Shown here: one piece after another, positions 1 to 31,330 of the stretch | Layout: each line of letters starts with the position of its first letter | Position numbering within the stretch: the first letter of the stretch is position 1 | Assembly: GCF_003790525.1 (NCBI RefSeq) | Contig: NZ_CP033635.1 | Reading direction: 5' to 3' (one strand) | From: Escherichia coli | GTDB taxonomy: Bacteria; Pseudomonadota; Gammaproteobacteria; Enterobacterales; Enterobacteriaceae | DNA: 64,000 bases | Position numbers and translations under genes: made by a program | The notes under the pieces: model-generated | Databases searched by the model: none | What the model was told of the DNA's origin: nothing | What the model saw: only the letters and a program-made list of their open reading frames with translations

Positions 1-814
1 CTGAGAAAGCGCCATGCGTAAATTTGCCTGTCTCGTAATCAAACTGTCCATGTAGCCAGGCGCAGGGATAGGTATTCAGATAGCGCTCATGTTCGCGCGC
101 CATTCCCTGGGGGCAGCAGAGGAGAATGTATTCACCATCAAGGGCGAAAAGATCAGGACATTCCCACATGTATCCTGCGTTATCAATTTCATTCAGACCA
201 TTACCAGCAATTTCTCCATGAAAAGACCAGGTATAGAGATCGACAGAGGAATACAGCAGCACTTTCCCCCGTTTCTCTTTATCTTGCGCGCCAAGCACCA
301 TGTACCATCGGCTGTTGTGCTTCCAGACTTTTGGATCACGAACATGTCCGGTGTAACCATCAGGTAACGGTATGACAGGGCCTAATTTATCAAACCCGCC
401 CTGGTTATTTTCGGTGGCCAGACATTGCCATGCCGTTCTGCTGCCATCATCAAACTTAACATTACCGGTATAGCAAAGTGTGAGAACGCCCTGATTATTA
501 ACCGCGCTTCCTGAGTAACAACCATTACGGTCATACTCTTTATCGGGCATTAGCGCTAATGGTTCATGCTGCCAGTGCAATAAATCCGTCGAACTCCAGT
601 GCCCCCAACATTTGTACTTATGATTACAATCCAATGGATTCCACTGATAAAACAGATGATAGCGGCCTCCTGACCAGCAAAAGCCATTTGGATCGTTCAT
701 TAGTCCGGTGACGGGAGCGAGATGCCAACAAGGATAGTGGGCATCTGCCTGTGCTTTGGACTGACCTTTCATCACTGCCTGTAAAATCGCGGGCATTTGT
801 GAAGGCATCGACAT
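1..814 (-). CDS. scrB: sucrose-6-phosphate hydrolase (GH32 invertase); N-terminal part only, gene runs off the window start
   Basis: Minus-strand frame open from 814 down to position 1; translation begins MSMPSQMPAILQAVMKGQSKAQADAHYPCWH; ATG overlaps the scrA stop (TAATG). Absent from the ORF track because no stop lies in the window. Confidence 0.75.
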   Translation of the reverse strand, partial: MSMPSQMPAILQAVMKGQSKAQADAHYPCWHLAPVTGLMNDPNGFCWSGGRYHLFYQWNPLDCNHKYKCWGHWSSTDLLHWQHEPLALMPDKEYDRNGCYSGSAVNNQGVLTLCYTGNVKFDDGSRTAWQCLATENNQGGFDKLGPVIPLPDGYTGHVRDPKVWKHNSRWYMVLGAQDKEKRGKVLLYSSVDLYTWSFHGEIAGNGLNEIDNAGYMWECPDLFALDGEYILLCCPQGMAREHERYLNTYPCAWLHGQFDYETGKFTHGAFS

Positions 815-2184
815 TACTCCTCGTCTGTTTTGTATTTGAGCAATAAAGAGAGACTAAAAGCGACAGCGAAAGCAATCACCATTCCAATAATATAATTAAC
901 CAACGATGTTGGCTGAACGATTGCCATGCCGGGTATTGCGGTCAGACCAACGGCAGTCATATAAACGTGAACAGAGACAACCCAGGCACCGCCGGCAGCG
1001 CCACCAATTAAGGCCGCAATAAAAGGTTTAACAAAACGAAGGTTGATACCAAAAATAGCGGCTTCAGTAATCCCTAACATTGCGGAAAAAGCCGAGGGTA
1101 GGGTGATTGCTTTAATTTTTGTATCTTTGGTTTTAAACCATACCGCCAGACATGCACCGCCTTGCGCAACGTTTGCCATTGCCCAAATAGGCAGCAGGAA
1201 ATTAACACCGATTGCAGGGTTACCTAAAAGTCCTGCTTCAATTGCGTGGAAGCTATGATGAATACCCGTAATAACAATCGCTGAATATAGCCCGCCGAAT
1301 AACAACCCCGCTAACCAGCCAGCGTGTGCAATCAGCGTGCTGAGAACGAAAGAGATACCATCACCTAACGCTCGCCCTGCCGGACCAATAATTAAAAGAG
1401 CGATAAAGCCAGAAATGACGACAGTCAGAAATGGCGTCAGAATGAGATCCAGAGCATCAGGGATAAACCTGCGTAACTGTTTTTCCACTATGCTCATAAA
1501 CCATACTGCCAGAAGCACGGGGAAAACCGTTCCCTGATAGCCAATCATGGCGATTTCAAAACCGAAGAAGTTCATTGTCTGAAATCCCGCAGCAACGCCC
1601 CAGGCATTTGTGAGTGCCGGGTGAGTCAGAATCCCTCCTAATGTCGCGCCAAGATAAGGATTTCCACCAAATTCACGAGCAGCAGTAAAGCCAATCAGGA
1701 TGGGGAGAATAATAAATGCGGCTGAACTGCACATATCCAGCAGGATATAAATCGCATTATCGGCATTCACCCAGCCATATGTTTTCACCATTCCCAGAAG
1801 CCCCATTAATAAACCAGAAGCAACAATGGCAGGAATGATGGGGACAAAAATATTAGAAAGCAGCCGTGCTATTCGCTGAAAAGGATTGAGTTTTTGAGCG
1901 GCGAGTCGAGCGGTATCTGCTTTACTGGATTCGCTAATACCCGCAACCTGAATAAAGGCAGCATAGACTTTATTAACCACGCCGGTGCCAAAGATGATCT
2001 GCATTTGCCCTGAATTACGAAAACAACCTTTCACTCCATCAATCTGGCCAATGGCATGTTGATCGGCAAGTGTGTCGTCAACCAGTACCAGCCGTAGGCG
2101 AGTGGCGCAATGTGCTGCACTGGCGATGTTCTCCTTACCACCTAATAAAGGAAGCAACGATTGGGCGATTTTATCGAAATCCAT
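814..2184 (-). CDS. scrA: PTS sucrose-specific EIIBC component
   Basis: 456 aa ORF; N-terminal EIIB-like motif (MDFDKIAQSLLPLLGGKENI...CATRLR) followed by a polytopic membrane domain. Confidence 0.85.
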   Translation of the reverse strand: MDFDKIAQSLLPLLGGKENIASAAHCATRLRLVLVDDTLADQHAIGQIDGVKGCFRNSGQMQIIFGTGVVNKVYAAFIQVAGISESSKADTARLAAQKLNPFQRIARLLSNIFVPIIPAIVASGLLMGLLGMVKTYGWVNADNAIYILLDMCSSAAFIILPILIGFTAAREFGGNPYLGATLGGILTHPALTNAWGVAAGFQTMNFFGFEIAMIGYQGTVFPVLLAVWFMSIVEKQLRRFIPDALDLILTPFLTVVISGFIALLIIGPAGRALGDGISFVLSTLIAHAGWLAGLLFGGLYSAIVITGIHHSFHAIEAGLLGNPAIGVNFLLPIWAMANVAQGGACLAVWFKTKDTKIKAITLPSAFSAMLGITEAAIFGINLRFVKPFIAALIGGAAGGAWVVSVHVYMTAVGLTAIPGMAIVQPTSLVNYIIGMVIAFAVAFSLSLLLKYKTDEE

Positions 2185-2244
2185 ATAACCCTCTAATTCA
2201 TTGTTATTTCAGTAAAAGCCTCACATTCGTGAGGCTGTCTGGTA

Positions 2245-3786
<1,542 letters not shown>

Positions 3787-3806
3787 TTATAAAAATTGCT
3801 AAAATG

Positions 3807-3820
3807 CTAAACCGGTTTAG
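3807..3820. promoter_or_regulatory. perfect 14-bp palindrome CTAAACCGGTTTAG, candidate ScrR (LacI-family) operator upstream of scrY
   Basis: Perfect inverted repeat read directly from the sequence in the scrK-scrY intergenic region. Confidence 0.5.
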
Positions 3821-3865
3821 GTGTTGATAATAAAGCTGACTTTTTAGCCAGAGCAATTATTTTCG

Positions 3866-3879
3866 CTAAACCGATTTAG
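3866..3879. promoter_or_regulatory. second operator-like near-palindrome CTAAACCGATTTAG
   Basis: One-mismatch copy of the 3807-3820 palindrome, 59 bp away in the same intergenic region. Confidence 0.45.
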
Positions 3880-3929
3880 TAAATGTGACAGGCACGACAA
3901 ATCGGGTTACAGATACAACAGCAGGATCA

Positions 3930-4850
3930 CTATTGTGAAGGGAGATCGTGTTGTCGGGGTAAGGCGGTTATCGCGCCTTTAGCCGTGGTCGCCAGAGCAC
4001 CACAAATCTGAGCTTGTGCAATGATTCGTTCAAGCTGTCTGGTATTTGTTGGTATTCCAGAATCAGCCAGACCTGCAAGTAATCCAGCGACAAAAGCATC
4101 TCCTGCCCCGGTCGTATCGACGACAGAAACAGGTTTGGCGGGATAGTGGATAAACTGCCCCTGAAAATACACAAGTACGCCATTTTTTCCTTGTGTAATA
4201 AGCAATAAAGTCAACGAATAACGTTGTACTAATGAATATGCGCCTTGCTGAACCTGGCTTTCGCCACTGATGAATAGCAACTCTTCTTCGGACAATTTAG
4301 CGATATTCGCCAGCGAAAGTGCGCGATCAAGGTATTTCCTTAATAGCGCTTCACTCTGCCAGAGATCGCTGCGGATATTGGGATCAAAACTGATGTTTCC
4401 GCCAGCCTGACGTATTTTCTCCATAGCCAGAAATGCGGTACTTCGGGAAGGTTCTGCACTGAGCGCAATGGAACAAAGATGGAGCCATTCACCCGGCCCA
4501 AATGCAGGAAGGTCACCAGGTTGTAAAAAAAGATCGGCACTTGGGCGTACCATAAAGGTAAAGTTTCTTTCTCCTTGCTCATCAAGTCCTACAGCCACAA
4601 TTGAGGTGCGTTGTTGAGGATCAAGAGACATATAATGTGTATCAACATTTTCTGTACTCAGTGTCTGATACATAAAGCGACCGAAAGGATCATCGCCAAC
4701 TTTGCCAATAAAGGCACTTTTCCCCCCCAGCCTTGCGATACCGACTGCAACATTAGCAGGCGCCCCGCCAGGACACTGTAGTAGTCTCCCCTGGCTTTCG
4801 GGTAATAAATCAACAACCGCATCACCGAGTACCCATACTCTTGCGCTCAT
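3930..4850 (-). CDS. scrK: fructokinase (PfkB/ribokinase family)
   Basis: 306 aa ORF with N-terminal GDAVVD and C-terminal DTTGAGDAF motifs. Confidence 0.85.
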   Translation of the reverse strand: MSARVWVLGDAVVDLLPESQGRLLQCPGGAPANVAVGIARLGGKSAFIGKVGDDPFGRFMYQTLSTENVDTHYMSLDPQQRTSIVAVGLDEQGERNFTFMVRPSADLFLQPGDLPAFGPGEWLHLCSIALSAEPSRSTAFLAMEKIRQAGGNISFDPNIRSDLWQSEALLRKYLDRALSLANIAKLSEEELLFISGESQVQQGAYSLVQRYSLTLLLITQGKNGVLVYFQGQFIHYPAKPVSVVDTTGAGDAFVAGLLAGLADSGIPTNTRQLERIIAQAQICGALATTAKGAITALPRQHDLPSQ

Positions 4851-5014: not shown

Positions 5015-6493
5015 TTACGCATTCGACCAGCTCTGGATCGAATCTTCATTCCCCAGCTCACCATGCATCACTTCATACGATTTTTTCAGGATCACATCAG
5101 TGTGCTTGGTTAGGTCTTTGAAAATGCCTTTATTCATCGCGTCGTAGCGTTTGGCGTTGCTCTCAACAGGCATAAAGATATCTTTCACGCGAACCATTTT
5201 GTCGACAGCCGTTGCGTAATCCGGGTATAGCCCCAGACCTGCCGCCGTATTGATCGCAGCCCCCAGACTTGCACAACCATTAATGGCGTTTCGGCGTGCC
5301 GGAAGGTTGAACACGTCGGCAAAAATCTGCATAAACAGATCGCTGTTCGAACCGCCGCCAGTAATGATCACATGCTTTGCAAAGTGATTCATTTCATTAC
5401 ACATATTGTCGTAATTGTTCTTCAGCGTCAGCGCCACGCTTTCCAGTATCGAACGATATATCCATGCGTAATCCATGCTGGAATCAAAGCCGATCATAAT
5501 CCCGCGTTTGTATGGTTCCCACGGATTGGTCAGCCAGTCCAGCACCGTCATCAGACCATTACAGCCAGGCGGCACACAAGACGCTTTTTTGTTGAGCAAA
5601 TCTTCCGGTGAAAGATCCTGTGCTTTGGCATCCTGAATTAACGACTCGCCTAGCATGTCGCGTAGCCAGCTCACCGTCCACATGCCTTTGCGAATACCGT
5701 AACCTTCATACAGCAAGGTTTGCGGAATAGAAGACATAATCGGCCAGTACGCTACCGGATCTTTCGGCAGTGCTTTGCCGTTCATCATCAACGCGATGTA
5801 AGTGCCAAGAGAAATTACCGCCGTTTCATCATCCAGTAACCCTGCTCCCAGTGCTTCTACCGGTTTATCACTGGTGGTACAAACAACGGGCAGTCCAACC
5901 GGGAAATGTGTCGCCAGCGCGGCTTGTGGTGTGATATGCCCAAGAACAGTGCCCGGCATTTGCACATCAAAAAGCATCTGTCGGGGAATATTAAACTTCT
6001 CCATTACCGCGGTATCTTCGCTCCATGCCCAGGTCTTATAATCCACCGGCCACTGACCAAAATAGTTGGCGATATTGTCTTTAAACTCGCCGGTTAAACG
6101 GTGTGTCAGATAACCTGAAAAAGAGGTGACATATGCCACATCAGGATTGGTGTGCTCGTAGGGACGTGTAACGCGTGCATCCTGCCAGCTAATCAACGGC
6201 GCAGCTGGCGTGCCATCGGCTTTCAATAACGCACGGCAGCAACGGATGGATCCCAGACCAATACCGACAATATCTTCTTTATTTCCGGCAAACTGACTCA
6301 TCAAATCGTGACCGGCAAAACATAATGATGCCCATAAATCGTCGTCAGGATGTTCTGCGGTATCGGCATCTGGCGTGTGCATCGGCTGCAATAAGCCTTT
6401 GCCTTCGCAAACCACATTACCTTCCAGATCATACATCACCACTTTTGTGCTCTGACTTCCGCCATCAATCCCTATGATGTATTTTTTCGACAT
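5015..6493 (-). CDS. ygcE: FGGY-family sugar (pentulose/hexulose) kinase
   Basis: 492 aa ORF, N-terminal IGIDGGSQSTK actin-fold kinase motif. Confidence 0.85.
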   Translation of the reverse strand: MSKKYIIGIDGGSQSTKVVMYDLEGNVVCEGKGLLQPMHTPDADTAEHPDDDLWASLCFAGHDLMSQFAGNKEDIVGIGLGSIRCCRALLKADGTPAAPLISWQDARVTRPYEHTNPDVAYVTSFSGYLTHRLTGEFKDNIANYFGQWPVDYKTWAWSEDTAVMEKFNIPRQMLFDVQMPGTVLGHITPQAALATHFPVGLPVVCTTSDKPVEALGAGLLDDETAVISLGTYIALMMNGKALPKDPVAYWPIMSSIPQTLLYEGYGIRKGMWTVSWLRDMLGESLIQDAKAQDLSPEDLLNKKASCVPPGCNGLMTVLDWLTNPWEPYKRGIMIGFDSSMDYAWIYRSILESVALTLKNNYDNMCNEMNHFAKHVIITGGGSNSDLFMQIFADVFNLPARRNAINGCASLGAAINTAAGLGLYPDYATAVDKMVRVKDIFMPVESNAKRYDAMNKGIFKDLTKHTDVILKKSYEVMHGELGNEDSIQSWSNA

Positions 6494-6519
6494 GATTTTT
6501 CTCCTGTAATTTTCTGGAC

Positions 6520-7797
6520 TTACTTGCTGCTAGCCATAGCAGGGGCGCTATCAGCAGTACGAATTTTTTGGAACAGCAAAAAGGTAAAGATGATCACCAT
6601 GGCAAGCGCCGCCATGCCCATTAGCCACATGTTGCGGTAGGCTTCTGCAGCGGGCAGGGTGTCTTGCCAGTGGCCGATAATCGGGTAAACGAAGACATCC
6701 GGCAGGAATCCAATCACCGAACAAATACCTACCGTGGTGCCCATAATGTAAGACGGTGTTCTCGCTTCGCCGGGGCAGGCCCAGTACAGTCCACGTGAGG
6801 CGTAGCAGGTGAATCCCAGTAGTAAAATCAGGCCAATCCCCATAGCGACCGATTGCGGGTTAGAGTTGGTAACAAGCAGGGCAGTCAGTGCCAGCAGGCC
6901 GATGATGGAAAGGATTTGAATTACGCGGGTAGGGGATTTCACTTTACTGTAGGTGGTGATAATGCCGCCAAGTGGACCACACAGCGCGCGGAAGATTTTG
7001 TTGATCACAATCCCCATGTAGCTCGCCGCCACCAGCGACATGCCGTACATTTCGGTGAGATAGTTGGTGGAGTAACTCAGAATGGCGTAGATGGTGAAGA
7101 CGCCAAAAATCACCATGCTGCAATACCAGGTGGTGCTGATGCGCAAAACAGCCAGGATGTCGCTAAGCTGGAATGATTGTTTTTCTTCGTTATTGGCACT
7201 GCGCAGGTTGTTGTTATCGCTAACAAAAAACCAGCACAGAATCCCCAACAAGATGTAAACCACACTATAGATGATAATGACCGTTTTCAGGCTGGCGCTG
7301 TCATCCGGTGCAAAGCGAGAAAAGACCCACATGGTAAACACCGCCAGCGACATTACACCGACGCCGCGCAGCCCTTCCATCCAGCCCATAATTTTCCCTT
7401 GCTCGCTATGATCGCCCAGCAACGATGCGGCTTTAATCGACACCGACCACAGCATTAAAATCGTCGTTATCGCAAAGGCAACCTGAATACAGAGCATTAC
7501 CCACAGCGGTGGATAAGTTGCCATTAACAGACCCAGTAATCCGGTAATGATCATCGCGGAAGTAATCATTTTGCGATGTGAGAATTTATCGGCAATAACG
7601 CCACTGGGCGCATAAAGAATAATAGCTGCAATACCAAAGGTACTCATTATTAAACCTATCTCGGTATTGCTGAATCCCATAAATTTCGCCATGGGAATTT
7701 GATAAATATAACGTAAATAAGCCAGGTCGAAACTAACGCCGCCGCTAAAACTAATTATCGCGAGGGTTATCCAACGGCGATATGAGTTGTGTTGCAT
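6520..7797 (-). CDS. yqcE: MFS transporter
   Basis: 425 aa ORF, 12-TM-like hydrophobic profile; 27 bp upstream of ygcE on the same strand. Confidence 0.8.
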   Translation of the reverse strand: MQHNSYRRWITLAIISFSGGVSFDLAYLRYIYQIPMAKFMGFSNTEIGLIMSTFGIAAIILYAPSGVIADKFSHRKMITSAMIITGLLGLLMATYPPLWVMLCIQVAFAITTILMLWSVSIKAASLLGDHSEQGKIMGWMEGLRGVGVMSLAVFTMWVFSRFAPDDSASLKTVIIIYSVVYILLGILCWFFVSDNNNLRSANNEEKQSFQLSDILAVLRISTTWYCSMVIFGVFTIYAILSYSTNYLTEMYGMSLVAASYMGIVINKIFRALCGPLGGIITTYSKVKSPTRVIQILSIIGLLALTALLVTNSNPQSVAMGIGLILLLGFTCYASRGLYWACPGEARTPSYIMGTTVGICSVIGFLPDVFVYPIIGHWQDTLPAAEAYRNMWLMGMAALAMVIIFTFLLFQKIRTADSAPAMASSK

Positions 7798-7821
7798 ATC
7801 GTATTCCCATTTGTAATAGAC

Positions 7822-7869
7822 AAAAAAAAGAGAAAAGTAAGCCGCCCTTTCAGGTGGATTACTTTTCTC
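7822..7869 (-). terminator. leader hairpin plus U8 tract 24 nt upstream of the yqcE start (candidate attenuator/terminator)
   Basis: 11-bp stem GAGAAAAGTAA / TTACTTTTCTC (7830-7840 / 7859-7869) followed on the minus strand by eight U (7822-7829). Confidence 0.5.
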
Positions 7870-7972
7870 AGGTCTCTAGTAATTGCAATAAGAAATAACA
7901 TGGAAAGCAGTGGTGTTGTGTGAGAGTAGTCACGCTTCTGCTTTTTAAAATTATTTGACAATACGAATATCA

Positions 7973-7994
7973 CACTGTGATTACGATCACATTA
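7973..7994. promoter_or_regulatory. CRP-type binding site (TGTGA-N6-TCACA) in the divergent yqcE/ygcW control region
   Basis: TGTGA at 7976-7980, 6-bp spacer, TCACA at 7987-7991: a perfect CRP core consensus. Confidence 0.55.
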
Positions 7995-8043
7995 GCGCTT
8001 ATGCCCTTATGCTAAAAATTATCTCCAGTTACCAGAGATAATG

Positions 8044-8090
8044 AGAAAGGTAACTTCCCTCTCGCGGGGGAAGTTACCTTTCTTTTTTTT
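8044..8090 (+). terminator. leader hairpin plus T8 tract 24 nt upstream of the ygcW start (candidate attenuator/terminator)
   Basis: 15-16 bp stem GAGAAAGGTAACTTCCC / GGGAAGTTACCTTTC (8043-8059 / 8068-8082), 8-nt loop, then TTTTTTTT (8083-8090). Confidence 0.55.
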
Positions 8091-8114
8091 GCTTTACGGA
8101 AATTGGAGTTAACT

Positions 8115-8900
8115 ATGTCAATCGAATCTCTCAATGCGTTCTCAATGGATTTTTTCTCCCTGAAAGGTAAAACAGCAATTGTTACCGGCGGGAATAGCGG
8201 TTTAGGCCAGGCATTTGCCATGGCGTTGGCCAAAGCTGGCGCAAATGTCTTTATCCCTAGCTTCGTCAAAGATAACGGCGAAACAAAGGAAATGATTGAA
8301 AAACAGGGTGTCGAAGTTGATTTTATGCAGGTGGATATCACCGCAGAAGGCGCGCCGCAGAAGATTATCGCTGCCTGCTGTGAGCGCTTCGGTACCGTAG
8401 ATATTCTGGTTAACAATGCCGGTATTTGTAAGCTGAATAAGGTGCTGGACTTTGGTCGTGCCGACTGGGACCCGATGATTGACGTGAACCTGACCGCCGC
8501 ATTCGAGTTAAGCTATGAAGCTGCAAAAATTATGATCCCGCAGAAAAGCGGTAAAATCATTAATATCTGTTCATTATTCTCTTACTTAGGTGGACAATGG
8601 TCACCTGCATATTCTGCCACTAAACATGCTCTTGCCGGATTCACCAAAGCTTATTGTGATGAACTAGGTCAATATAATATTCAGGTAAATGGTATTGCCC
8701 CTGGATATTACGCTACCGATATCACCCTGGCGACACGCAGTAATCCAGAAACCAATCAGCGCGTTCTTGATCATATTCCAGCAAACCGTTGGGGCGATAC
8801 TCAGGATTTAATGGGCACAGCCATATTTCTCGCAAGTCCGGCATCGAATTATGTCAACGGACATTTATTAGTGGTTGATGGCGGTTATTTAGTGCGCTAA
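8115..8900 (+). CDS. ygcW: short-chain dehydrogenase/reductase (KduD/gluconate 5-dehydrogenase-like)
   Basis: Start moved from the ORF-track TTG (8103) to ATG 8115 (MSIESLNAF..., GGAG Shine-Dalgarno at 8105-8108); TGGNSGLG Rossmann motif. Confidence 0.85.
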   Translation: MSIESLNAFSMDFFSLKGKTAIVTGGNSGLGQAFAMALAKAGANVFIPSFVKDNGETKEMIEKQGVEVDFMQVDITAEGAPQKIIAACCERFGTVDILVNNAGICKLNKVLDFGRADWDPMIDVNLTAAFELSYEAAKIMIPQKSGKIINICSLFSYLGGQWSPAYSATKHALAGFTKAYCDELGQYNIQVNGIAPGYYATDITLATRSNPETNQRVLDHIPANRWGDTQDLMGTAIFLASPASNYVNGHLLVVDGGYLVR

Positions 8901-8969
8901 TCCATAACGGTGGTTTCTGTTTTCTCTTATTAATGATTATTCCATTTTTATTATCAGGAAGGAATTACT

Positions 8970-10424
8970 ATGTCTTTATCTCGCGCAGCGATTGTCGACC
9001 AGCTAAAGGAAATTGTTGGTGCAGATCGCGTAATTACCGATGAAACAGTATTAAAGAAAAACAGTATTGACCGTTTTCGCAAATTTCCGGATATTCATGG
9101 CATTTATACTTTGCCTATTCCGGCAGCGGTCGTAAAACTCGGTTCCACAGAGCAAGTGTCCCGTGTGCTGAATTTTATGAATGCGCACAAAATTAACGGT
9201 GTGCCGCGTACCGGTGCTTCCGCCACTGAAGGCGGGCTGGAAACCGTTGTGGAAAACTCGGTGGTGCTCGACGGCTCTGCCATGAATCAAATCATTAATG
9301 TTGATATTGAGAATATGCAGGCCACGGCGCAATGTGGCGTTCCGCTGGAGGTGCTGGAAAACGCGTTGCGTGAAAAAGGTTACACCACGGGGCATTCACC
9401 GCAATCAAAACCGCTGGCGCAGATGGGCGGCCTGGTAGCAACCCGCAGTATCGGGCAGTTCTCCACACTCTACGGCGCAATCGAAGATATGGTCGTTGGT
9501 CTGGAAGCAGTATTGGCTGATGGCACCGTCACACGTATTAAAAACGTACCACGCCGCGCGGCAGGCCCGGACATTCGTCACATTATCATCGGCAACGAAG
9601 GTGCATTGTGCTATATCACTGAAGTAACAGTGAAAATCTTTAAGTTCACCCCGGAAAACAACCTCTTCTACGGCTATATCCTGGAAGACATGAAAACCGG
9701 CTTCAACATCCTGCGTGAAATCATGGTGGAAGGGTATCGTCCGTCGATCGCTCGTTTGTATGACGTTGAAGATGGCACCCAACACTTCACCCATTTTGCC
9801 GACGGTAAATGTGTGCTGATCTTTATGGCTGAAGGTAACCCTCGCATTGCGAAGGCGACGGGTGAAGGGATTGCTGAAATCGTGGCGCGCTACCCGCAGT
9901 GCCAGCGCGTGGACAGCAAGCTGATCGAAACCTGGTTTAACAACCTGAACTGGGGACCGGATAAAGTGGCTGCCGAACGTGTGCAGATCCTCAAAACCGG
10001 CAACATGGGCTTTACCACCGAAGTGTCCGGCTGCTGGAGCTGCATCCACGAAATCTACGAAAGCGTTATTAACCGTATTCGCACCGAGTTCCCGCACGCC
10101 GACGACATCACCATGCTGGGCGGTCACTCCTCTCATAGCTATCAGAACGGCACCAACATGTACTTCGTCTACGACTACAACGTCGTTGACTGTAAGCCGG
10201 AAGAGGAAATCGACAAGTACCACAATCCGCTCAACAAAATCATTTGCGAAGAAACCATTCGCCTCGGCGGTTCGATGGTGCACCACCACGGTATTGGTAA
10301 ACATCGCGTTCACTGGAGCAAACTGGAACACGGCAGCGCGTGGACGTTGCTGGAAGGGCTGAAAAAACAGTTCGATCCTAACGGCATTATGAATACGGGT
10401 ACTATCTATCCGATTGAAAAATAA
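8970..10424 (+). CDS. ygcU: FAD-linked oxidase (GlcD / alkyl-DHAP synthase-like)
   Basis: 484 aa ORF with FAD-binding PCMH-type domain signature. Confidence 0.85.
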   Translation: MSLSRAAIVDQLKEIVGADRVITDETVLKKNSIDRFRKFPDIHGIYTLPIPAAVVKLGSTEQVSRVLNFMNAHKINGVPRTGASATEGGLETVVENSVVLDGSAMNQIINVDIENMQATAQCGVPLEVLENALREKGYTTGHSPQSKPLAQMGGLVATRSIGQFSTLYGAIEDMVVGLEAVLADGTVTRIKNVPRRAAGPDIRHIIIGNEGALCYITEVTVKIFKFTPENNLFYGYILEDMKTGFNILREIMVEGYRPSIARLYDVEDGTQHFTHFADGKCVLIFMAEGNPRIAKATGEGIAEIVARYPQCQRVDSKLIETWFNNLNWGPDKVAAERVQILKTGNMGFTTEVSGCWSCIHEIYESVINRIRTEFPHADDITMLGGHSSHSYQNGTNMYFVYDYNVVDCKPEEEIDKYHNPLNKIICEETIRLGGSMVHHHGIGKHRVHWSKLEHGSAWTLLEGLKKQFDPNGIMNTGTIYPIEK

Positions 10425-10465
10425 TGTGTGAGGCAGCGTTCCGCGATGACGGGGCGTTGCCTTTT

Positions 10466-10496
10466 CGGCTTCTCAGGCGAGAAGCCGTTCTTATTA
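10466..10496 (+). terminator. intercistronic terminator-like hairpin between ygcU and ygcS
   Basis: 9-bp stem CGGCTTCTC / GAGAAGCCG with loop AGGC, followed by TTCTTATTA. Confidence 0.4.
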
Positions 10497-10517
10497 CCGG
10501 ACAATGAAGGGGTAAAG

Positions 10518-11855
10518 ATGAACACTTCACCGGTGCGAATGGATGATTTACCACTTAACCGTTTTCACTGCCGCATTGCTGCGCTCACTTTCGGTGCGCA
10601 CCTGACCGACGGTTATGTCCTCGGCGTCATTGGTTACGCCATTATTCAGCTTACGCCCGCCATGCAACTGACGCCGTTTATGGCGGGAATGATTGGCGGC
10701 TCAGCACTCCTTGGTTTGTTTCTTGGCAGCCTGGTTCTTGGATGGATCTCCGACCATATTGGTCGGCAAAAAATCTTCACCTTCAGCTTTTTGCTGATTA
10801 CGCTCGCTTCGTTCTTGCAATTTTTTGCCACCACGCCAGAGCATCTTATTGGGCTGCGCATTTTGATCGGCATTGGTCTGGGAGGCGATTACTCAGTCGG
10901 TCACACCTTGCTGGCTGAATTTTCCCCGCGCCGCCATCGCGGTATTTTACTGGGCGCATTCAGCGTGGTGTGGACCGTAGGCTATGTGTTGGCAAGTATT
11001 GCCGGACATCACTTTATTTCCGAAAACCCGGAGGCCTGGCGCTGGCTGCTGGCATCAGCGGCGTTACCAGCCTTGCTGATTACGCTGCTACGTTGGGGCA
11101 CGCCGGAATCGCCACGCTGGCTACTGCGCCAGGGACGTTTTGCTGAAGCTCACGCTATTGTGCATCGCTATTTGGGGCCACATGTTTTACTGGGCGATGA
11201 AGTGGCAGCGGCGACCCATAAACACATCAAAACCTTGTTTTCTTCGCGCTACTGGCGACGCACGGCGTTTAACAGCGTCTTCTTTGTCTGCCTCGTAATC
11301 CCATGGTTTGTGATTTATACCTGGCTGCCGACCATCGCCCAGACTATTGGTCTGGAGGATGCGCTGACCGCCAGCCTGATGCTTAATGCGTTGTTAATTG
11401 TGGGCGCGCTGCTGGGATTAGTTCTGACGCACCTGCTGGCACATCGCAAGTTTTTGCTGGGAAGTTTTTTGCTGCTGGCGGCAACGCTGGTAGTGATGGC
11501 CTGTTTGCCTTCCGGCAGTTCATTAACGCTGCTGCTTTTTGTTCTCTTCAGCACCACCATTTCGGCAGTCAGTAATCTGGTGGGCATTTTGCCTGCGGAA
11601 AGTTTTCCTACTGACATTCGCTCGCTGGGCGTCGGTTTTGCCACCGCCATGAGTCGGTTGGGGGCGGCGGTAAGTACTGGCCTGCTGCCGTGGGTGCTGG
11701 CGCAGTGGGGAATGCAAGCCACCTTATTGCTCCTGGCGGCAGTGTTGTTGGTTGGTTTTGTTGTGACCTGGCTATGGGCACCAGAAACCAAAGCACTCCC
11801 GCTGGTGGCGGCGGGAAATGTAGGAGGTGCGAATGAACATTCTGTTAGCGTTTAA
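10518..11855 (+). CDS. ygcS: MFS sugar/metabolite transporter
   Basis: Start taken at ATG 10518 (MNTSPVRMDD...), 445 aa; the ORF-track start at 10428 is an upstream in-frame extension. Confidence 0.8.
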   Translation: MNTSPVRMDDLPLNRFHCRIAALTFGAHLTDGYVLGVIGYAIIQLTPAMQLTPFMAGMIGGSALLGLFLGSLVLGWISDHIGRQKIFTFSFLLITLASFLQFFATTPEHLIGLRILIGIGLGGDYSVGHTLLAEFSPRRHRGILLGAFSVVWTVGYVLASIAGHHFISENPEAWRWLLASAALPALLITLLRWGTPESPRWLLRQGRFAEAHAIVHRYLGPHVLLGDEVAAATHKHIKTLFSSRYWRRTAFNSVFFVCLVIPWFVIYTWLPTIAQTIGLEDALTASLMLNALLIVGALLGLVLTHLLAHRKFLLGSFLLLAATLVVMACLPSGSSLTLLLFVLFSTTISAVSNLVGILPAESFPTDIRSLGVGFATAMSRLGAAVSTGLLPWVLAQWGMQATLLLLAAVLLVGFVVTWLWAPETKALPLVAAGNVGGANEHSVSV

Positions 11856-12612
11856 AGCCGAACCGGATGCCGGAATGCTGGCGGAAAAAGAGTGGCAGGC
11901 GGCGGCTCAGGGTAATATTGGACCAGATGTTTCGCTACTGCGAAGTTTACTCGGTGCTGATGAACAGGCTGCCGCCGCGCTGCTGTTGGCGCAGAGAAAA
12001 AATGGTACTCCGATGTCTTTAACCGCGTTGAGCATGGGGGATGAACGGGCGTTGCACTGGCTGCGCTATCTCATGGCTCTTGGGTTTGAGGAAGCTGTAT
12101 TGCTGGAGACGGCGGCAGATCTGCGCTTTGCGCCGGAATTTGTCGCTCGCCATATTGCCGAGTGGCAGCATCAGAATCCGCTGGATCTGATCATTACCGG
12201 CTGCCAAAGCAGCGAAGGACAGAATGGGCAAACGCCATTTTTGCTGGCGGAAATGCTGGGCTGGCCCTGTTTCACCCAGGTGGAGCGTTTCACACTCGAC
12301 GCGCCGTTTATCACCCTCGAACAGCGTACTGAAAATGGGGTGCGCTGTTGCCGGGTTCGCTTGCCTGCGGTGATTGCCGTGCGTCAGTGCGGTGAAGTGG
12401 CCTTGCCAGTACCGGGAATGCGCCAGCGAATGGCTGCGGGGAAAGCAGAAATTATCCGTAAAACTGTTGCTGTCGAATTGCCAGCGATGCAGTGTCTGCA
12501 ACTGGCAAGAGCAGAGCAACGACGCGGAGCGACGCTGATTGATGGGCAAACGGTAGCAGAAAAAGCGCAAAAGCTATGGCAGGACTATTTACGCCAAAGG
12601 ATGCAGCCATGA
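11833..12612 (+). CDS. ygcR: electron transfer flavoprotein beta-like subunit (FixA-like)
   Basis: ATG 11833 (MNILLAFK...) preceded by AGGAGG at 11822-11827. Confidence 0.8.
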   Translation: MNILLAFKAEPDAGMLAEKEWQAAAQGNIGPDVSLLRSLLGADEQAAAALLLAQRKNGTPMSLTALSMGDERALHWLRYLMALGFEEAVLLETAADLRFAPEFVARHIAEWQHQNPLDLIITGCQSSEGQNGQTPFLLAEMLGWPCFTQVERFTLDAPFITLEQRTENGVRCCRVRLPAVIAVRQCGEVALPVPGMRQRMAAGKAEIIRKTVAVELPAMQCLQLARAEQRRGATLIDGQTVAEKAQKLWQDYLRQRMQP

Positions 12613-13469
12613 ATATCGCCATTGTGACAATAAATCAGGAGAATGCCGCAATAGCGAGCTGGCTGGCAGAACAGGATTTCAGCGGTTGTACCCTGGCGCA
12701 CTGGCAGATTGAACCTCAGCCCGTAGTGGCGGAACAGGTGCTGGATGCGTTGGTGGAACAGTGGCAGCGAACGCCTGCGGACGTTGTTCTCTTTCCGCCG
12801 GGAACGTTTGGCGATGAACTGTCGACCCGGCTGGCCTGGCGTTTACATGGTGCAAGCATCTGCCAGGTGACTTCGTTAGATATTCCAACCGTAAGCGTGC
12901 GCAAATCCCACTGGGGAAATGCGTTGACGGCGACGCTGCAAACAGACAAACGCCCGCTATGCCTTTCGCTGGCACGTCAGGCGGGAGCAGATAAAAACGC
13001 CACGTTGTCCTCTGGGATGCAGCAACTGAACATTGTCCCCGGCGCGCTTCCCGACTGGCTGGTTAGCCTAGAAAACCTGAAAAATGTTACCCGCGACCCA
13101 TTAGCTGAAGCCAGACGGGTGCTGGTGGTGGGGCAGGGCGGAGAGGCAGATAACCAGGAAATCGCTATGCTGGCAGAAAAGCTGGGAGCCGAAGTGGGCT
13201 ACAGTCGGGCACGAGTGATGAACGGTGGCGTTGATGCCGAAAAAGTCATTGGTATTTCCGGACATCTGCTGGCACCTGAGGTGTGTATTGTTGTTGGTGC
13301 TTCCGGCGCAGCAGCGTTAATGGCGGGCGTACGCAATAGCAAGTTTGTGGTGGCGATTAATCATGACGCCAGCGCAGCGGTATTTTCACAGGCAGATGTT
13401 GGCGTGGTTGATGACTGGAAAGTGGTGCTGGAGGCACTGGTGACAAACATTCACGCAGATTGCCAATAA
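12609..13469 (+). CDS. ygcQ: electron transfer flavoprotein alpha-like subunit (FixB-like)
   Basis: ATG 12609 (MNIAIVT...) overlapping the ygcR stop (ATGA). Confidence 0.8.
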   Translation: MNIAIVTINQENAAIASWLAEQDFSGCTLAHWQIEPQPVVAEQVLDALVEQWQRTPADVVLFPPGTFGDELSTRLAWRLHGASICQVTSLDIPTVSVRKSHWGNALTATLQTDKRPLCLSLARQAGADKNATLSSGMQQLNIVPGALPDWLVSLENLKNVTRDPLAEARRVLVVGQGGEADNQEIAMLAEKLGAEVGYSRARVMNGGVDAEKVIGISGHLLAPEVCIVVGASGAAALMAGVRNSKFVVAINHDASAAVFSQADVGVVDDWKVVLEALVTNIHADCQ

Positions 13470-13475
13470 CGTGTT

Positions 13476-13585
13476 GCCGGATGATCCTGCCTACGGTTCT
13501 GGCCTGGGGACTTGTAGGCCTGATAAGACGCGTCAAGCGTCGCATCAGGCGCTGAATGTCGGATGTGGCGTGCAGCCTACAAATC
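13476..13585. repeat. REP/BIME palindromic units in the convergent ygcQ/ygcP gap
   Basis: GCCTGATAAGACGCGTCAAGCGTCGCATCAGGC and flanking GCCGGATG.../...GCAGCCTACA REP-like units. Confidence 0.6.
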
Positions 13586-13615
13586 ACACAAATTCAATTC
13601 GTTACGATTATCCCG

Positions 13616-14191
13616 TTAAAGCAATTTTTTCGCCAACGTCCAGACCCCGGTATTCGTGGTGGAAAGCGCCACGACACCCGCGTTAATCGCATTACGCGCA
13701 TCTTCTTCATCGCACACCAGCCCGCCGGCAATCAGCGGTTGGCGGATTTTCTCCGTCACCCAGCCCAGCACTTTGGGCATACAGCCAGGCAGGATCTCAA
13801 TACAATCCGGATTCGATTGCGCAACTTGCTTATCAATGTTGTGAAACGAAATCGAATCAACAATAAACAGTCGATGAATACAGAAAAAACCTTCCGCTCT
13901 TGCTGCTTTCAGCATTGAGGCTTTGGTACTGATAATTCCGTCCGCCTCGGTCACCAGTTTCAAAAACTGAATCACCACTTCTTTATTTGACGCGCCTTCC
14001 AGCAAATCAACATGAATAAAAGCATATTTCCCGGCGTTCTTAATCTTTTTAACGATATTACTAATGGTGCAGATATTGCCGTACAACACGGAAATAAACT
14101 GGCATTCAGAGTCGATTGCCAGTTGCAGGCTGGCATTATCTTTAACGGCAGCAATCACCGGATTCTGGCGGAGCAGGTGTAAGAGGGGCAT
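13616..14191 (-). CDS. ygcP: GlpP-family (glycerol-3-phosphate-responsive type) transcription antiterminator
   Basis: 191 aa ORF; sequence and size match the GlpP/YgcP family. Confidence 0.8.
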   Translation of the reverse strand: MPLLHLLRQNPVIAAVKDNASLQLAIDSECQFISVLYGNICTISNIVKKIKNAGKYAFIHVDLLEGASNKEVVIQFLKLVTEADGIISTKASMLKAARAEGFFCIHRLFIVDSISFHNIDKQVAQSNPDCIEILPGCMPKVLGWVTEKIRQPLIAGGLVCDEEDARNAINAGVVALSTTNTGVWTLAKKLL

Positions 14192-14207
14192 AAATTATCC
14201 TTATTAT

Positions 14208-14468
14208 TTATCCAAAACGGTAGGTGATGCCGAATCCGGAAGGTGGATAGCGCCACTGTTGTAGTGTTTTTTCGTCGCACAGCAAACGGCAGGTGCCACA
14301 CTCCAGGCAACTGCGATAGTCAATACGTAAGTCACCTTCTGGTGTGAGCGAAAAAAGACCAGCCGGACAAGCGTTAATCAACCATTGTACCGTCTGACGC
14401 TCAACGGAGTCAGCCGGAACAATGTGCGGCGCATCGGCAACGCGCCAGAGATTACGGGCTACAGACAT
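14208..14468 (-). CDS. ygcO: ferredoxin-like protein (FixX-like)
   Basis: Start taken at MSVARNLW (86 aa); cysteine cluster CLECGTCRLLC; overlaps the ygcN stop. Confidence 0.7.
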   Translation of the reverse strand: MSVARNLWRVADAPHIVPADSVERQTVQWLINACPAGLFSLTPEGDLRIDYRSCLECGTCRLLCDEKTLQQWRYPPSGFGITYRFG

Positions 14469-15730
14469 CGCAGACTCCTGATAACATCGCCCGCCAGATG
14501 CCACAGGCCGTGACGACGTAAATGACGCCAGAATAACTGGTGCAGCGGTGGAACAGGTTTATCACCCTGATCCCATAAATCGCGGGAAATATCCTGCATT
14601 AACGCAGGCCACGCCCGATACCAGCCAGGGCGTTGCAAAAGCGCCGGAACATGCTGATAACGTTGTAGAACATCCCACAGCAGGCTGCGCTCTACGTTGT
14701 GATGATAAAGCGCAAACAGATTTTGCGGCTCGCGGTGCTGGCAGGCGCTTATCAGCGTTTGTGCCGCCGCCTGCGCGCCAGTTAGCGCCATATCCATGCC
14801 GCGCACGGAAATTCCGGTATTGACGCAACTGCGCAACGTATCGCCCACCAGCAGCCAGCCGTTACCGGCGTATTGCACCTGCATACTGTGCAAGCCACCT
14901 TCTGGCACCAGATGCGCACCATACTCCAGTGATTCCGTGTTTTTGATAAGCGGGCGCACTGCCGGATGCGTTTTAAAGCGAGCCAGCAGCTCGCTTGCCG
15001 GAACACGACTTTGCGTAAGTGAAGAGAGCGGGCAAACAATCCCTAACGAGAGCGTTTGTTGATTAGTATAAAGAAATGCGCCGCCGGGTAAGTCATCACA
15101 GATCCCGCCGCTGAACAGCAACGCTGCGCCTTCGTTATTCTCCAGATGAAAACGTTCTTCAATAGCGGATGTTTCCAGCGACAGCACTTCTTTGATCCCC
15201 AACGCCATCGCTTCGCCAGCAGGACGAGTCACTAACCCGTGACGTTCAGCCAGGACGCTGTTGGCACCTTCTGCCAGCACCACATAACGGGCGCGGAGAA
15301 TATCGTCACCACAAATGACACCACACACCCTGCCGTTTTCTTCATACAGCGCATCCACCGTCGCACCGGGGATGCATTCGACACCTTCTTTTTCGGCTTC
15401 GGCAACCAGCCACGGATCGAACCGTGCACGTAATACACTCCAGGATTCACCGCCGGGCTGTAAGCTGGAAAACGTCGTTGCGCCATCCGGCGTTAACAGG
15501 GAAAGGCTTTCGTGAGTGATGCGTCGTTCAAGAGGCGCGGTCAGATGAAATTGTGGGAGGAGTTCCGCGAGCGCCTGGGTATATAAACGCCCGCCGGAAA
15601 GATTTTTGCTGCCGGGGATTTCAGCGCGTTCCAGTAACAAAACGGATAAACCCGCTCGCGCGCAGCGTAACGCGCAAGCGGTGCCTGCAATACCGGCACC
15701 AATAATAATAATGTCGCAGTCGTCTTCCAT
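14459..15730 (-). CDS. ygcN: FAD-dependent oxidoreductase (FixC / ETF-quinone oxidoreductase-like)
   Basis: Start taken at MEDDCDIIIIGAGIAG (423 aa); GxGxxG FAD motif. Confidence 0.8.
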   Translation of the reverse strand: MEDDCDIIIIGAGIAGTACALRCARAGLSVLLLERAEIPGSKNLSGGRLYTQALAELLPQFHLTAPLERRITHESLSLLTPDGATTFSSLQPGGESWSVLRARFDPWLVAEAEKEGVECIPGATVDALYEENGRVCGVICGDDILRARYVVLAEGANSVLAERHGLVTRPAGEAMALGIKEVLSLETSAIEERFHLENNEGAALLFSGGICDDLPGGAFLYTNQQTLSLGIVCPLSSLTQSRVPASELLARFKTHPAVRPLIKNTESLEYGAHLVPEGGLHSMQVQYAGNGWLLVGDTLRSCVNTGISVRGMDMALTGAQAAAQTLISACQHREPQNLFALYHHNVERSLLWDVLQRYQHVPALLQRPGWYRAWPALMQDISRDLWDQGDKPVPPLHQLFWRHLRRHGLWHLAGDVIRSLRCL

Positions 15731-21072: not shown

Positions 21073-21225
21073 ATGCTGACAAAATATGCCCTTGTGGCAA
21101 TCATAGTGCTGTGTTTTACAGTACTGGGATTCACGCTGATGGTAGGCGACTCGTTGTGTGAGTTGAGTATCAGAGAACGTGGTATGGAGTTTAAGGCGGT
21201 TCTCGCTTACGAATCGAAGAAGTAG
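21073..21225 (+). CDS. Hok/Gef-family type I toxin (50 aa)
   Basis: Below the ORF-track length cutoff; ATG at 21073 preceded by GGGAGG (21061-21066); [50 protein letters not shown] has the Hok family TM helix plus LCE...AYES signature. Confidence 0.7.
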
Positions 21226-21246
21226 CCACCACGCGGGGGTAAAACC

Positions 21247-22585: not shown

Positions 22586-22768
22586 GGGTAAAACCCCGCG
22601 TACTGAATTGTGATGGTTTGGTCTCCTGCACCCTTTTTTAATTTATATTGTTTATGTGAATATTATGCCTATGTTTATTATTCATATATATTACGGATGA
22701 AAATTATTTGATTATTCATAATGTAAATATTTTATTGAACGATATATATCACAGATAATTTTTAATAT

Positions 22769-25468: not shown

Positions 25469-25565
25469 GATGTCTGCGACAGGATTCTCTGAATAGTTGA
25501 TACACAAAAAAGGATGGAAGGATGGACAACCGACCAGGGATGGTCTTTTTTACGAGAGGATGCGT

Positions 25566-27661: not shown

Positions 27662-27675
27662 TAAAGGACTATCTC

Positions 27676-28731: not shown

Positions 28732-28741
28732 GGGGCGGCTT

Positions 28742-30120: not shown

Positions 30121-31330
<1,210 letters not shown>

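Follow-up and report, generated by a model that had tools for sequence, protein, structure and literature searches.

The ygc gene cluster of Escherichia coli: a conserved enzyme core, divergent leader RNAs and a proposed catabolic role

Gene content of the ygc cluster

The ygc cluster of Escherichia coli is a group of ten genes located at positions 5015-15730 of the stretch of DNA analysed here (64,000 nucleotides of contig NZ_CP033635.1; hereafter, the window). In a megablast comparison the cluster is 100% identical to that of E. coli SMS-3-5 (NC_010498.1), and at least 80% of it is found in 5060 of 5426 complete E. coli genomes. All ten genes are intact, with the RefSeq annotation and the list of open reading frames in agreement, and they form three apparent transcription units, of which yqcE-ygcE and ygcN-ygcO-ygcP run on the minus strand and ygcW-ygcU-ygcS-ygcR-ygcQ runs on the plus strand. 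As a list of y-genes the cluster is already known; new here are an enzyme core shared across phyla, the likeness of one of its members, YgcU, to alkyl-dihydroxyacetone-phosphate synthase (ADPS), a putative leader-RNA switch tied to the YgcP protein, and a link to betaine-type transport.

Three genes encode the core enzymes. The product of ygcE (5015-6493, minus strand; the second gene of the yqcE-ygcE operon) is an FGGY-family kinase, whose best NCBIfam matches, xylulokinase and LsrK, score approx. 140 bits, far under the cut-offs, and whose nearest solved structure is that of LsrK (5ya0); against the GlpK model it scores 102 bits, with a cut-off of 590. YgcW (8115-8900, plus strand) is a short-chain dehydrogenase/reductase (SDR) that attains neither the cut-off of the KduD-type model NF005390 (348.6 bits, cut-off 369) nor that of TIGR01832, which covers SDRs of the KduD and gluconate 5-dehydrogenase kind (275 bits, cut-off 339). 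YgcU (8970-10424, plus strand) is an ADPS-like flavoenzyme carrying the domains FAD_binding_4 (PF01565) and FAD-oxidase_C (PF02913), as expected for the VAO/PCMH fold.

Two carriers of the major facilitator superfamily (MFS) are encoded by yqcE (6520-7797, minus strand) and ygcS (10446-11855, plus strand). YqcE is distant kin of the D-galactonate and phosphoglycerate transporter families, and YgcS matches TIGR00895 (183 bits), TIGR00879 (145 bits), and TIGR00898 (138 bits), i.e., the aromatic-acid, sugar-porter, and organic-cation-transporter/SV2 families. A G+C-rich 9-bp hairpin, CGGCTTCTC-aggc-GAGAAGCCG, is located at 10466-10487 (plus strand) in the first codons of ygcS, just past ygcU, and might modulate expression of the distal genes ygcS, ygcR, and ygcQ.

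The remaining genes encode an electron-transfer module and a regulator. The module consists of divergent β and α subunits of an electron-transferring flavoprotein (ETF), encoded by ygcR (11833-12612, plus strand) and ygcQ (12609-13469, plus strand), a FixC-like FAD oxidoreductase of the ETF:quinone oxidoreductase type, encoded by ygcN (14459-15730, minus strand), and a FixX-like ferredoxin, encoded by ygcO (14208-14468, minus strand). All four FixABCX-type homologues were detected in the NCBIfam scan, each below its curated cut-off: YgcR scores 35 bits (cut-off 219, E 1.5e-11), YgcQ 62 bits (cut-off 549, E 4e-21), and YgcO 80 bits (cut-off 166), while for YgcN the scores of NF007450 (375 bits) and of the FixC model (360 bits, cut-off 610) are both sub-threshold. 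The four genes do not form a single contiguous fixABCX operon, since ygcR and ygcQ are the last genes of the plus-strand operon and ygcN and ygcO are on the minus strand with ygcP. The latter gene (13616-14191, minus strand) encodes a GlpP-family antiterminator protein, which is the presumed reader of the two leaders described below. Between the convergent ygcQ and ygcP genes there is a weak Rfam match to naRNA4 (13517-13589, minus strand; 29.4 bits against a gathering score of 59.5), probably a REP-type repeat outside the ygc system.

None of the ten proteins reached a curated NCBIfam equivalog cut-off; thus, no function can be assigned by homology. An earlier interpretation made from the letters alone (the sequence-only reading) had named the families of these co-localised genes, and RefSeq, the reading frames, and the NCBIfam and Pfam matches bear it out at the family level. 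Its statement that no substrate or physiological role had been assigned agrees with searchable papers, in which none was found by gene name. In a study of D-serine effects, a ygcU deletion was tested and gave a negative result (PMC13012123), and the 'ygcO' of another paper (PMC13104625) is a misprint for ycgO and does not concern this gene.

Divergent promoters, leader RNAs and YgcP

The region between the divergent yqcE and ygcW genes is 318 bp long and contains two CRP-type sites, both of which are strongly conserved across enterobacterial genera. A perfect site, TGTGAttacgaTCACA, at 7976-7991 is centred at 7983.5, i.e., 41.5 bp from the putative ygcW transcription start at approx. 8025 (plus strand). 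The second, CRP-like site, TGTGAgagtagTCACG, at 7919-7934, which was read from the sequence and is conserved in orthologous regions of enterobacteria, is centred at 7926.5, again 41.5 bp from a putative start, that of yqcE at approx. 7885 (minus strand), just ahead of the P1 helix described below. These starts presuppose that both are class II sites at -41.5, and each inferred start lies behind a TGn-extended -10 element and 2-3 nt ahead of a motif shared by the two leaders. A CRP site had been predicted here (PMC1794230), and the site at 7976-7991 is included, as TGTGATTACGATCACA, in a table of CRP-binding sites of enterotoxigenic E. coli (PMC4287617); its in vitro Kd for CRP is 1.7 nM (PMC12871828), and yqcE-ygcE has been listed as Crp-activated (PMC8085971). 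Beyond CRP, no functional literature on the ygc genes was found among searchable papers.

Each of the two predicted transcripts would begin with a leader RNA that can fold in two mutually exclusive ways. In the yqcE leader (7811-7887, minus strand), an upstream helix, P1, is formed by ATTACT (7883-7878) and AGTAAT (7863-7858) around the loop AGAGACCTGAGAAA, and it overlaps an intrinsic terminator with a stem at 7869-7830 and a U-run at 7829-7822 (fold -27.5 kcal/mol, z -3.9). In the ygcW leader (8024-8103, plus strand), AGTTACC (8027-8033) pairs with GGTAACT (8049-8055) around the loop AGAGATAATGAGAAA, and this P1 overlaps a 19-bp terminator at 8043-8084, whose U-run extends to 8090, ahead of a Shine-Dalgarno sequence (8105-8108) and the start codon (ATG, 8115). 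Within the 11.7 kb scanned, no terminator-like site is stronger than that of the ygcW leader (fold -44.7 kcal/mol, z -8.3). The shared motif, TTACYAGAGA-N3-4-GAGAAARGTAAY, occurs in exactly two copies in the window, with 0 expected by chance, and in both places it makes up the 5' side of a strong terminator. The sequence-only reading had proposed the yqcE and ygcW leaders for reporter fusions, and it is these two that carry the shared element; the ygcN-ygcO-ygcP unit is apparently transcribed separately and has no such leader.

The same leader architecture is found upstream of ygc genes in other phyla, and 54 leaders from Enterobacterales, Negativicutes, Clostridia, Bacilli, and Actinomycetes were aligned (alignment A2). 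In this set, P1 (NTTACY with RGTAAN, closing the loop AGAG-N-GAGAAA) is 95.2% paired, with compensatory changes at five of its seven pairs; for example, G-C is replaced by A-U in 21 sequences, and GUUAC/GUAAC by GUCGC/GCGAC in Saccharopolyspora. The lower stem of the terminator (GAGAAAAG with CUUUUCUC) is 99.5% paired, with three compensatory pairs out of eight. For neither helix did any of 500 shuffles reach the observed pairing or covariation score, and controls with a slid register collapsed. Moreover, covariation links column 27 of the alignment to each of its two alternative partners, in keeping with a switch.

A covariance model of the leader (R1) was searched over 1.54 Mb and gave approx. 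116 matches at E <1e-6, exactly two of them in the window, i.e., the yqcE leader (74.9 bits, E 1.8e-17) and the ygcW leader (75.8 bits, E 9.7e-18). When set against a blastp census of the loci described in the next section, the search places the leader in 57 of the 58 YgcP-encoding loci, and 20 of the 25 loci without YgcP are devoid of it. Four of the five YgcP-less loci with a leader are contigs shorter than 10 kb or cut at a contig end, and the fifth belongs to a Serratia species with a YgcP homologue on another contig. A metagenome scan with the exact motif returned 20 loci, 19 of which place it beside ygc-type or regulon genes; the metagenomic match L098, which has neither a terminator nor ygc genes, was rejected as a chance occurrence. 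A rumen Eubacterium metagenome-assembled genome (MAG; L078) has the full core, ETF genes, a carrier of the betaine/choline/carnitine transporter (BCCT) family, and a 39%-identical YgcP, yet no R1 match, and may use a diverged leader or another form of control. Rfam 15 gave no match at E <=1 to either strand of 7798-8115; two weak matches elsewhere (naRNA4-like and snoRNA), below their gathering scores, were discarded as irrelevant.

YgcP was annotated in the sequence-only reading as a GlpP-type antiterminator, and it does match the Pfam family G3P_antiterm (PF04309) over its full length (model positions 1-173 of 173, E 1.6e-62) as well as the structure 3kts (E 1.2e-27). GlpP of Bacillus subtilis, a member of the same family, acts on the glpD, glpFK, and glpTQ leaders, where a promoter is followed by the GlpP site and then by an inherent terminator in the 5' untranslated region (PMC9604022). 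The ygc leaders share this layout, with catabolite control layered on top, and the hallmarks of the type are present: a full-length regulator, leader terminators, and a conserved alternative structure that overlaps the terminator. However, the regulated genes are ygcW-U-S-R-Q and yqcE-ygcE rather than glpFK, glpD, or glpTQ, the system resides in Proteobacteria and involves CRP rather than CcpA, and the ligand is probably not plain glycerol 3-phosphate (G3P). Canonical glpP-glpK-glpF and glpP-G3P-dehydrogenase loci are separate systems, and the identity of YgcP to their GlpP proteins is about 33-40%. R1 gave no match in four canonical glp loci (L107, L108, L110, and L111), while inspection by eye of L106 and L107 revealed a purine-rich GAGA..GAGA loop overlapping a terminator. 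Because canonical GlpP is only approx. 34% identical, R1 finds a single weak match among the canonical loci, and a similar loop occurs in two of them, the ygc leader is treated here as a distinct, tightly conserved variant of a known mechanism. It also resembles antitermination of the BglG/SacY type at RAT sequences, in which a protein-stabilised hairpin pre-empts an overlapping intrinsic terminator in a catabolic leader; however, the protein family, RNA motif, and signal are unrelated, and the ygc system lacks regulation domains of the phosphotransferase system (PTS). These features suggest that the cluster is probably switched on by CRP together with a leader terminator switch read by YgcP. 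They also agree with the premise of the sequence-only reading that the genes form one catabolic system, which is apparently co-regulated.

The enzyme core and its accessory genes across phyla

A scan with a YgcU alignment, limited to one genome per species, yielded 80 loci in Enterobacterales, SAR324, Desulfobacterota, Negativicutes, Clostridia, halophilic Bacilli, Syntrophomonadaceae, and Actinomycetes; the presence of genes at each locus was scored by blastp, and the absence of ETF genes was judged within 10 kb. YgcW, YgcU, and YgcE occur together in nearly all full-length loci from at least five phyla, with YgcE orthologues adjoining YgcU, and their identity to the E. coli proteins across phyla is 63-82%, 65-75%, and 43-58%, respectively, an unusual degree of conservation in the case of YgcU. 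The comparison of conserved neighbours that had been suggested along with the sequence-only reading thus singles out this trio as a fixed core, and the E. coli cluster is the enterobacterial form of a three-enzyme pathway that recurs in several phyla. YgcP, at 39-61% identity, accompanies it in Firmicutes, Actinomycetes, and Enterobacterales. In Halobacillus and Virgibacillus the operon is reduced to ygcW-ygcE-ygcU and one importer, with ygcP alongside; therefore, the three enzymes appear to be sufficient. YgcN, YgcO, and YgcS were detected in Enterobacterales only, as were YqcE homologues of at least 68% identity; distant YqcE homologues (23-34%) occur in Actinomycetes, a rumen Eubacterium, a Vibrio, and two metagenomic contigs. 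FixCX and the close YqcE and YgcS homologues are enterobacterial additions to the core. Two loci with Enterobacteriaceae-type ygc clusters bear odd labels, a Planctomycetota MAG (L005, 99% identity to E. coli) and Chryseobacterium sp. 18061 (L027, 88%), which likely reflect contamination or mis-binning.

ADPS binds a substituted dihydroxyacetone phosphate (DHAP) and swaps the substituent through a flavin-N5 adduct, with no net redox change; in the reaction of EC 2.5.1.26 a fatty alcohol, for which ADPS has a long hydrophobic tunnel, takes the place of the acyl group of acyl-DHAP. The label of FAD-linked oxidase that the sequence-only reading had given to YgcU is too general, as the protein resembles ADPS specifically. 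Its nearest solved relatives are ADPS structures (4bby and 2uuu, E 4e-40), and glycolate oxidase, LctD (7qh2, E 1.6e-21), and D-lactate dehydrogenases rank lower. In a profile alignment, YgcU keeps the catalytic residues of ADPS (guinea-pig numbering), with H438-H440 in the place of the His615-617 loop, Y398 in that of Tyr578, and R262 in that of Arg419; Tyr578 and Arg419 were located via the mutant PDB sequences 4bca and 4bc7. These residues are invariant in all 14 aligned sequences, which come from several phyla. The top 33 Foldseek matches of an AlphaFold model of YgcU, built from the 14-sequence alignment, are all ADPS, at a TM-score of approx. 0.6; with a mean predicted confidence (pLDDT) of only 69, the model serves for fold ranking and not for active-site or tunnel geometry. 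YgcU differs from ADPS in its genetic setting: it is linked to ETF genes, which ADPS does not need, and it is encoded in a CRP-controlled operon with importers and a kinase and would therefore run degradatively on a water-soluble substrate. No paper linking ADPS-like enzymes, FGGY kinases, and BCCT carriers was found in the searchable literature.

The ETF genes are far less constant than the core. They are located directly 3' of ygcU in anaerobes and are only 27-39% identical across phyla. Most clusters of aerobes lack them: within 10 kb of the core, none are present in aerobic Bacilli and Actinomycetes (Halobacillus, Virgibacillus, Thalassobacillus, Alkalihalobacillus, Saccharopolyspora, and Prauserella), in SAR324, and in the Erwinia/Pantoea-type clusters. 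Between E. coli and Citrobacter, Klebsiella, or Enterobacter (loci L008-L016 and L041), the core enzymes and YgcP are 89-97% identical and the ETF and FixCX proteins 55-79%; in particular, YgcQ of E. coli is 55-63% and YgcU 92-94% identical to the Citrobacter and Klebsiella proteins. Within Enterobacteriaceae, the electron-transfer module evolves several times faster than the core, and this difference in identity between genera marks it as an accessory under a different selective regime. The ETF-coupled oxidation module proposed in the sequence-only reading therefore stands as far as the presence of all ETF and FixCX homologues is concerned, but the ETF is an accessory missing from many clusters and FixCX is confined to enterobacteria. 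The ETF could keep the YgcU flavin oxidised without oxygen, which is consistent with its absence from aerobes. In three clostridial loci (L063, L065, and L068), the regulon holds a second GlcD-like FAD oxidase with its own ETF β/α pair downstream of ygcU and its ETF genes; such a second oxidase is found in 16 anaerobe loci overall.

Two known systems resemble this module. FixABCX of E. coli, which is linked to the cai genes and serves the metabolism of carnitine, a quaternary amine, and its paralogue YdiQRST comprise the same four protein types, and the carnitine role echoes the betaine-type transporters that accompany ygc homologues. In the ygc cluster, however, the genes are split between ygcRQ (plus strand) and ygcNO (minus strand), all scores are sub-equivalog, a VAO-family flavoprotein takes the place of an acyl-CoA dehydrogenase as the partner enzyme, and the electron module is accessory to the pathway. 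Likewise, in LctBCD, the lactate dehydrogenase-EtfAB complex of Acetobacterium woodii (7qh2), the gene of an FAD-linked oxidase stands beside its own EtfB/EtfA pair. LctD, however, is more distant from YgcU than ADPS is, and in the ygc system there is no indication of a 2-hydroxyacid substrate or of electron confurcation.

Clues to the substrate come from importers and accessory enzymes. Outside Enterobacterales, the leader is found directly upstream of the core operon, of BCCT carriers (L003, L064, L065, and L068), of OpuB/C-type ABC importers with OsmF/OpuAC-like binding proteins (L074, L075, L090, L093, and L094), and of MTTB-family methyltransferase genes (L074, L090, and L096); in L071 and L095, MTTB genes lie inside the core operon. 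The solved structures nearest to these MTTB proteins are those of glycine-betaine methyltransferases. At least one of these gene types is held by 24 of 37 non-enterobacterial genome loci, and many of the other 13 are short contigs. In a Vibrio cluster, an MFS and a BCCT carrier lie behind two strong leaders, and E. coli YgcS itself is among the proteins matching the organic-cation-transporter family (see above). L064 has a GldA-family glycerol dehydrogenase, encoded in its leader-controlled BCCT operon, as well as a SurE-like phosphatase, and some loci contain an aldo-keto reductase that resembles L-glyceraldehyde-3-phosphate reductase; the predicted functions of these accessory enzymes point to three-carbon chemistry at the glycerol or triose level. 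Because the leader precedes BCCT and OpuB/C importers and MTTB genes elsewhere, an ordinary sugar is a less likely substrate than a zwitterionic or quaternary-ammonium compound that ends in a glycerol-like group, at least outside Enterobacterales. The suggestion of the sequence-only reading that the cluster handles a sugar, sugar acid, or polyol thus finds no specific support, as the same regulon elsewhere contains betaine/choline/carnitine-type importers and quaternary-amine methyltransferase homologues. The sulfonate dihydroxypropanesulfonate (DHPS), which is excreted by E. coli and was considered on account of the adjacent cysJIH genes, was set aside, as the importers are of the cation/zwitterion type across phyla and the adjacency to cys genes is the usual synteny.

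Proposed pathway, alternatives and genomic surroundings

We propose, at roughly even chances, that the ygc genes constitute one inducible catabolic system organised in three layers: control, chemistry, and electrons. At the level of control, back-to-back promoters, each with a CRP site, would give transcripts that start with a 77-nt leader. By default, the leader would fold as a strong intrinsic terminator just before the first gene. Liganded YgcP would bind the purine-rich loop (AGAG...GAGAAA), hold P1, and sequester part of the 5' arm of the terminator, which would allow read-through. The ligand is probably the phosphorylated product of YgcE, an analogue of G3P. In the order of reactions envisaged here, YgcE would phosphorylate the primary hydroxyl of an imported small compound with a glycerol-like diol end, YgcW would oxidise the adjacent secondary hydroxyl to yield a substituted DHAP, and YgcU, using flavin-N5 chemistry at the carbon beside the ketone, would release the substituent, as the presumed leaving group, and a product at the triose-phosphate level. 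The scheme is suggested by two considerations: a kinase and an SDR acting on a 1,2-diol yield a substituted DHAP, which is what ADPS binds, and a GlpP-type sensor is expected to recognise a G3P-like intermediate. The eukaryotic enzyme that interconverts alkyl-DHAP and alkyl-G3P is, like YgcW, an SDR. As regards the electrons, their presumed direction and purpose would be the re-oxidation of the YgcU flavin at low oxygen via the dedicated ETF YgcRQ, and in Enterobacterales the chain would continue through YgcN and YgcO to the quinone pool.

Several points weigh against this proposal. YgcU has 484 residues compared with 658 in ADPS, the alignment begins at ADPS residue 192, and the N-terminal part of approx. 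190 residues is thus missing; moreover, the structural model, with its pLDDT of 69, is poor. ADPS chemistry is redox-neutral overall and gives no obvious reason for a dedicated ETF. The enterobacterial clusters use MFS and not BCCT carriers, so E. coli may handle a different compound. Nor does the scheme predict that in ETF-less clusters (L034, L039, L046, L048, L049 at approx. 1-4300, and L050 at 5033-7390) the aldo-keto reductase mentioned above is paired with a protein bearing a formaldehyde-activating-enzyme (Fae) domain. The reductase is 71% and the Fae-domain protein 55% identical between SAR324 and Enterobacterales, and the ETF-less clusters of Enterobacterales add a succinate-semialdehyde-dehydrogenase-type aldehyde dehydrogenase and a GcvA-like LysR regulator. 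With respect to the switch, the leader alignment was seeded with a P1-like pattern, although this pattern did not impose complementarity, and the aligned leaders are related, so that shuffle controls might be beaten without a real structure. Finally, only one of five canonical glpP loci gave an R1 match, a weak one in the right place (L106, 19 bits).

The strongest argument for a different interpretation is the tight linkage of ygcU to ETF genes, which fits a plain dehydrogenase better. The cluster might then encode an ordinary polyol or sugar-acid pathway, in which the MFS carriers import the substrate, YgcW oxidises and YgcE phosphorylates it, YgcU acts as a conventional GlcD/LctD-type dehydrogenase that passes two electrons through the ETF and YgcN/YgcO to quinones, and YgcP senses a sugar phosphate. 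FGGY, SDR, and GlcD-like families are typical of sugar and polyol routes, and YgcW is near KduD and gluconate 5-dehydrogenase. The gene order ygcU-ETFβ-ETFα mirrors that of LctD-EtfAB, LctD is among the solved relatives of YgcU, and the best matches of the E. coli MFS carriers include the D-galactonate and sugar-porter families. However, YgcU matches ADPS far better than LctD (4e-40 as opposed to 1.6e-21) and keeps ADPS-specific residues, the leader elsewhere precedes betaine-type importers and MTTB homologues rather than sugar carriers, and the ETF is dispensable in many clusters. On balance, such a pathway seems possible but rather unlikely.

A more specific form of the proposed three-enzyme chemistry can be envisaged, which we regard as a long shot. 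YgcE, YgcW, and YgcU might carry out ether-lipid biosynthesis in reverse on the water-soluble glyceryl-betaine backbones of deacylated betaine lipids, i.e., diacylglyceryltrimethylhomoserine (DGTS), diacylglycerylhydroxymethyltrimethyl-β-alanine (DGTA), and diacylglycerylcarboxyhydroxymethylcholine (DGCC). The kinase would phosphorylate the free primary hydroxyl of the glyceryl ether and the SDR would oxidise C2 to give an alkyl-DHAP. YgcU, reversing the second half-reaction of ADPS, would break the ether bond of the latter and so free DHAP together with a betaine alcohol, for example homoserine betaine. The fate of this alcohol would depend on the lineage: an alcohol dehydrogenase, a dehydrogenase of the betaine-aldehyde type, and a lyase resembling aspartase could convert it to fumarate and trimethylamine, and anaerobes might employ MTTB demethylases. 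This variant is favoured by the retained ADPS catalytic residues and by the presence of BCCT/Opu importers and MTTB genes under the same leader. In addition, locus L002 contains aspartate-ammonia-lyase-like (466 bits) and betaine-aldehyde-dehydrogenase-like (530 bits) genes according to NCBIfam, the route from the alcohol via aspartate betaine to fumarate having been proposed from Pfam names before that scan; in L051 an aspartase-like gene adjoins an MTTB gene, which makes two such loci. A deacylated DGCC derivative has been reported in nature (PMC10362313), and no bacterial catabolism of betaine-lipid head groups was found in the searchable literature.

Two further explanations fare worse. 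It is quite improbable that the cluster provides a second, oxygen-independent route for glycerol, with YgcE as glycerol kinase, YgcU and the ETF as G3P dehydrogenase, and YgcP sensing G3P as Bacillus GlpP does. YgcP is indeed a full-length G3P_antiterm protein, YgcE is distantly related to GlpK, ADPS-like enzymes bind triose phosphate, and one regulon includes a GldA-type glycerol dehydrogenase; however, the GlpK model gives YgcE 102 bits where its cut-off is 590, neither the SDR nor the betaine-type importers would have a role, and canonical glpP loci are separate, with a GlpP approx. 34% identical to YgcP. Moreover, E. coli glpK mutants are not known to grow on glycerol. That the cluster is a cryptic remnant in E. 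coli of a horizontally acquired system, without a working function, is hardly credible: no reported phenotype was found in the searchable literature, the ETF and FixCX proteins diverge faster than the core (55-79% versus 89-97% in Enterobacteriaceae), and approx. 7% of complete genomes are without most of the cluster, but the ten reading frames are intact, 5060 of the 5426 genomes keep the cluster, and strong conservation between the genera of enterobacteria extends to the core proteins, YgcP, the two leaders, and the two CRP sites.

The proposal of a CRP- and YgcP-controlled catabolic system would give ten y-genes of the E. coli K-12 type, so far classed as 'unknown', a concrete hypothesis open to bench tests. 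For E. coli, GlpP-type antitermination that depends on a protein would be a new class of regulation, and no report of it in Proteobacteria was found in searchable papers. The leader is a compact, portable RNA element backed by covariation, and a simple reporter with which to look for the inducer can be built from it. The candidate substrates are narrowed by the cross-phylum regulon to compounds that are quaternary-ammonium or zwitterionic in nature and end in a glycerol-like group. If correct, degradative ADPS-type chemistry by YgcU would represent a new enzymatic bond cleavage, with relevance for the turnover of osmolytes and betaine lipids in guts, sediments, and saline habitats. The betaine-lipid variant, if true, would amount to an undescribed flavin-dependent ether-cleaving route and a sink for abundant phosphorus-free membrane lipids.

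On its ygcE side, the cluster directly abuts a sucrose-utilisation island (window positions 1-4850) that encodes a LacI-type regulator, a sucrose-6-phosphate hydrolase, a sucrose PTS IIBC component, a carbohydrate porin (2245-3762, minus strand), and a kinase annotated as aminoimidazole riboside kinase (3930-4850, minus strand). On the other side, cysJIH is followed downstream by a hok/gef toxin gene (21073-21225), cas3 (21420-24119), type I-E cas genes, and a CRISPR array (30078-31387); the arrangement from 21073 to 31387 is the usual E. coli synteny.

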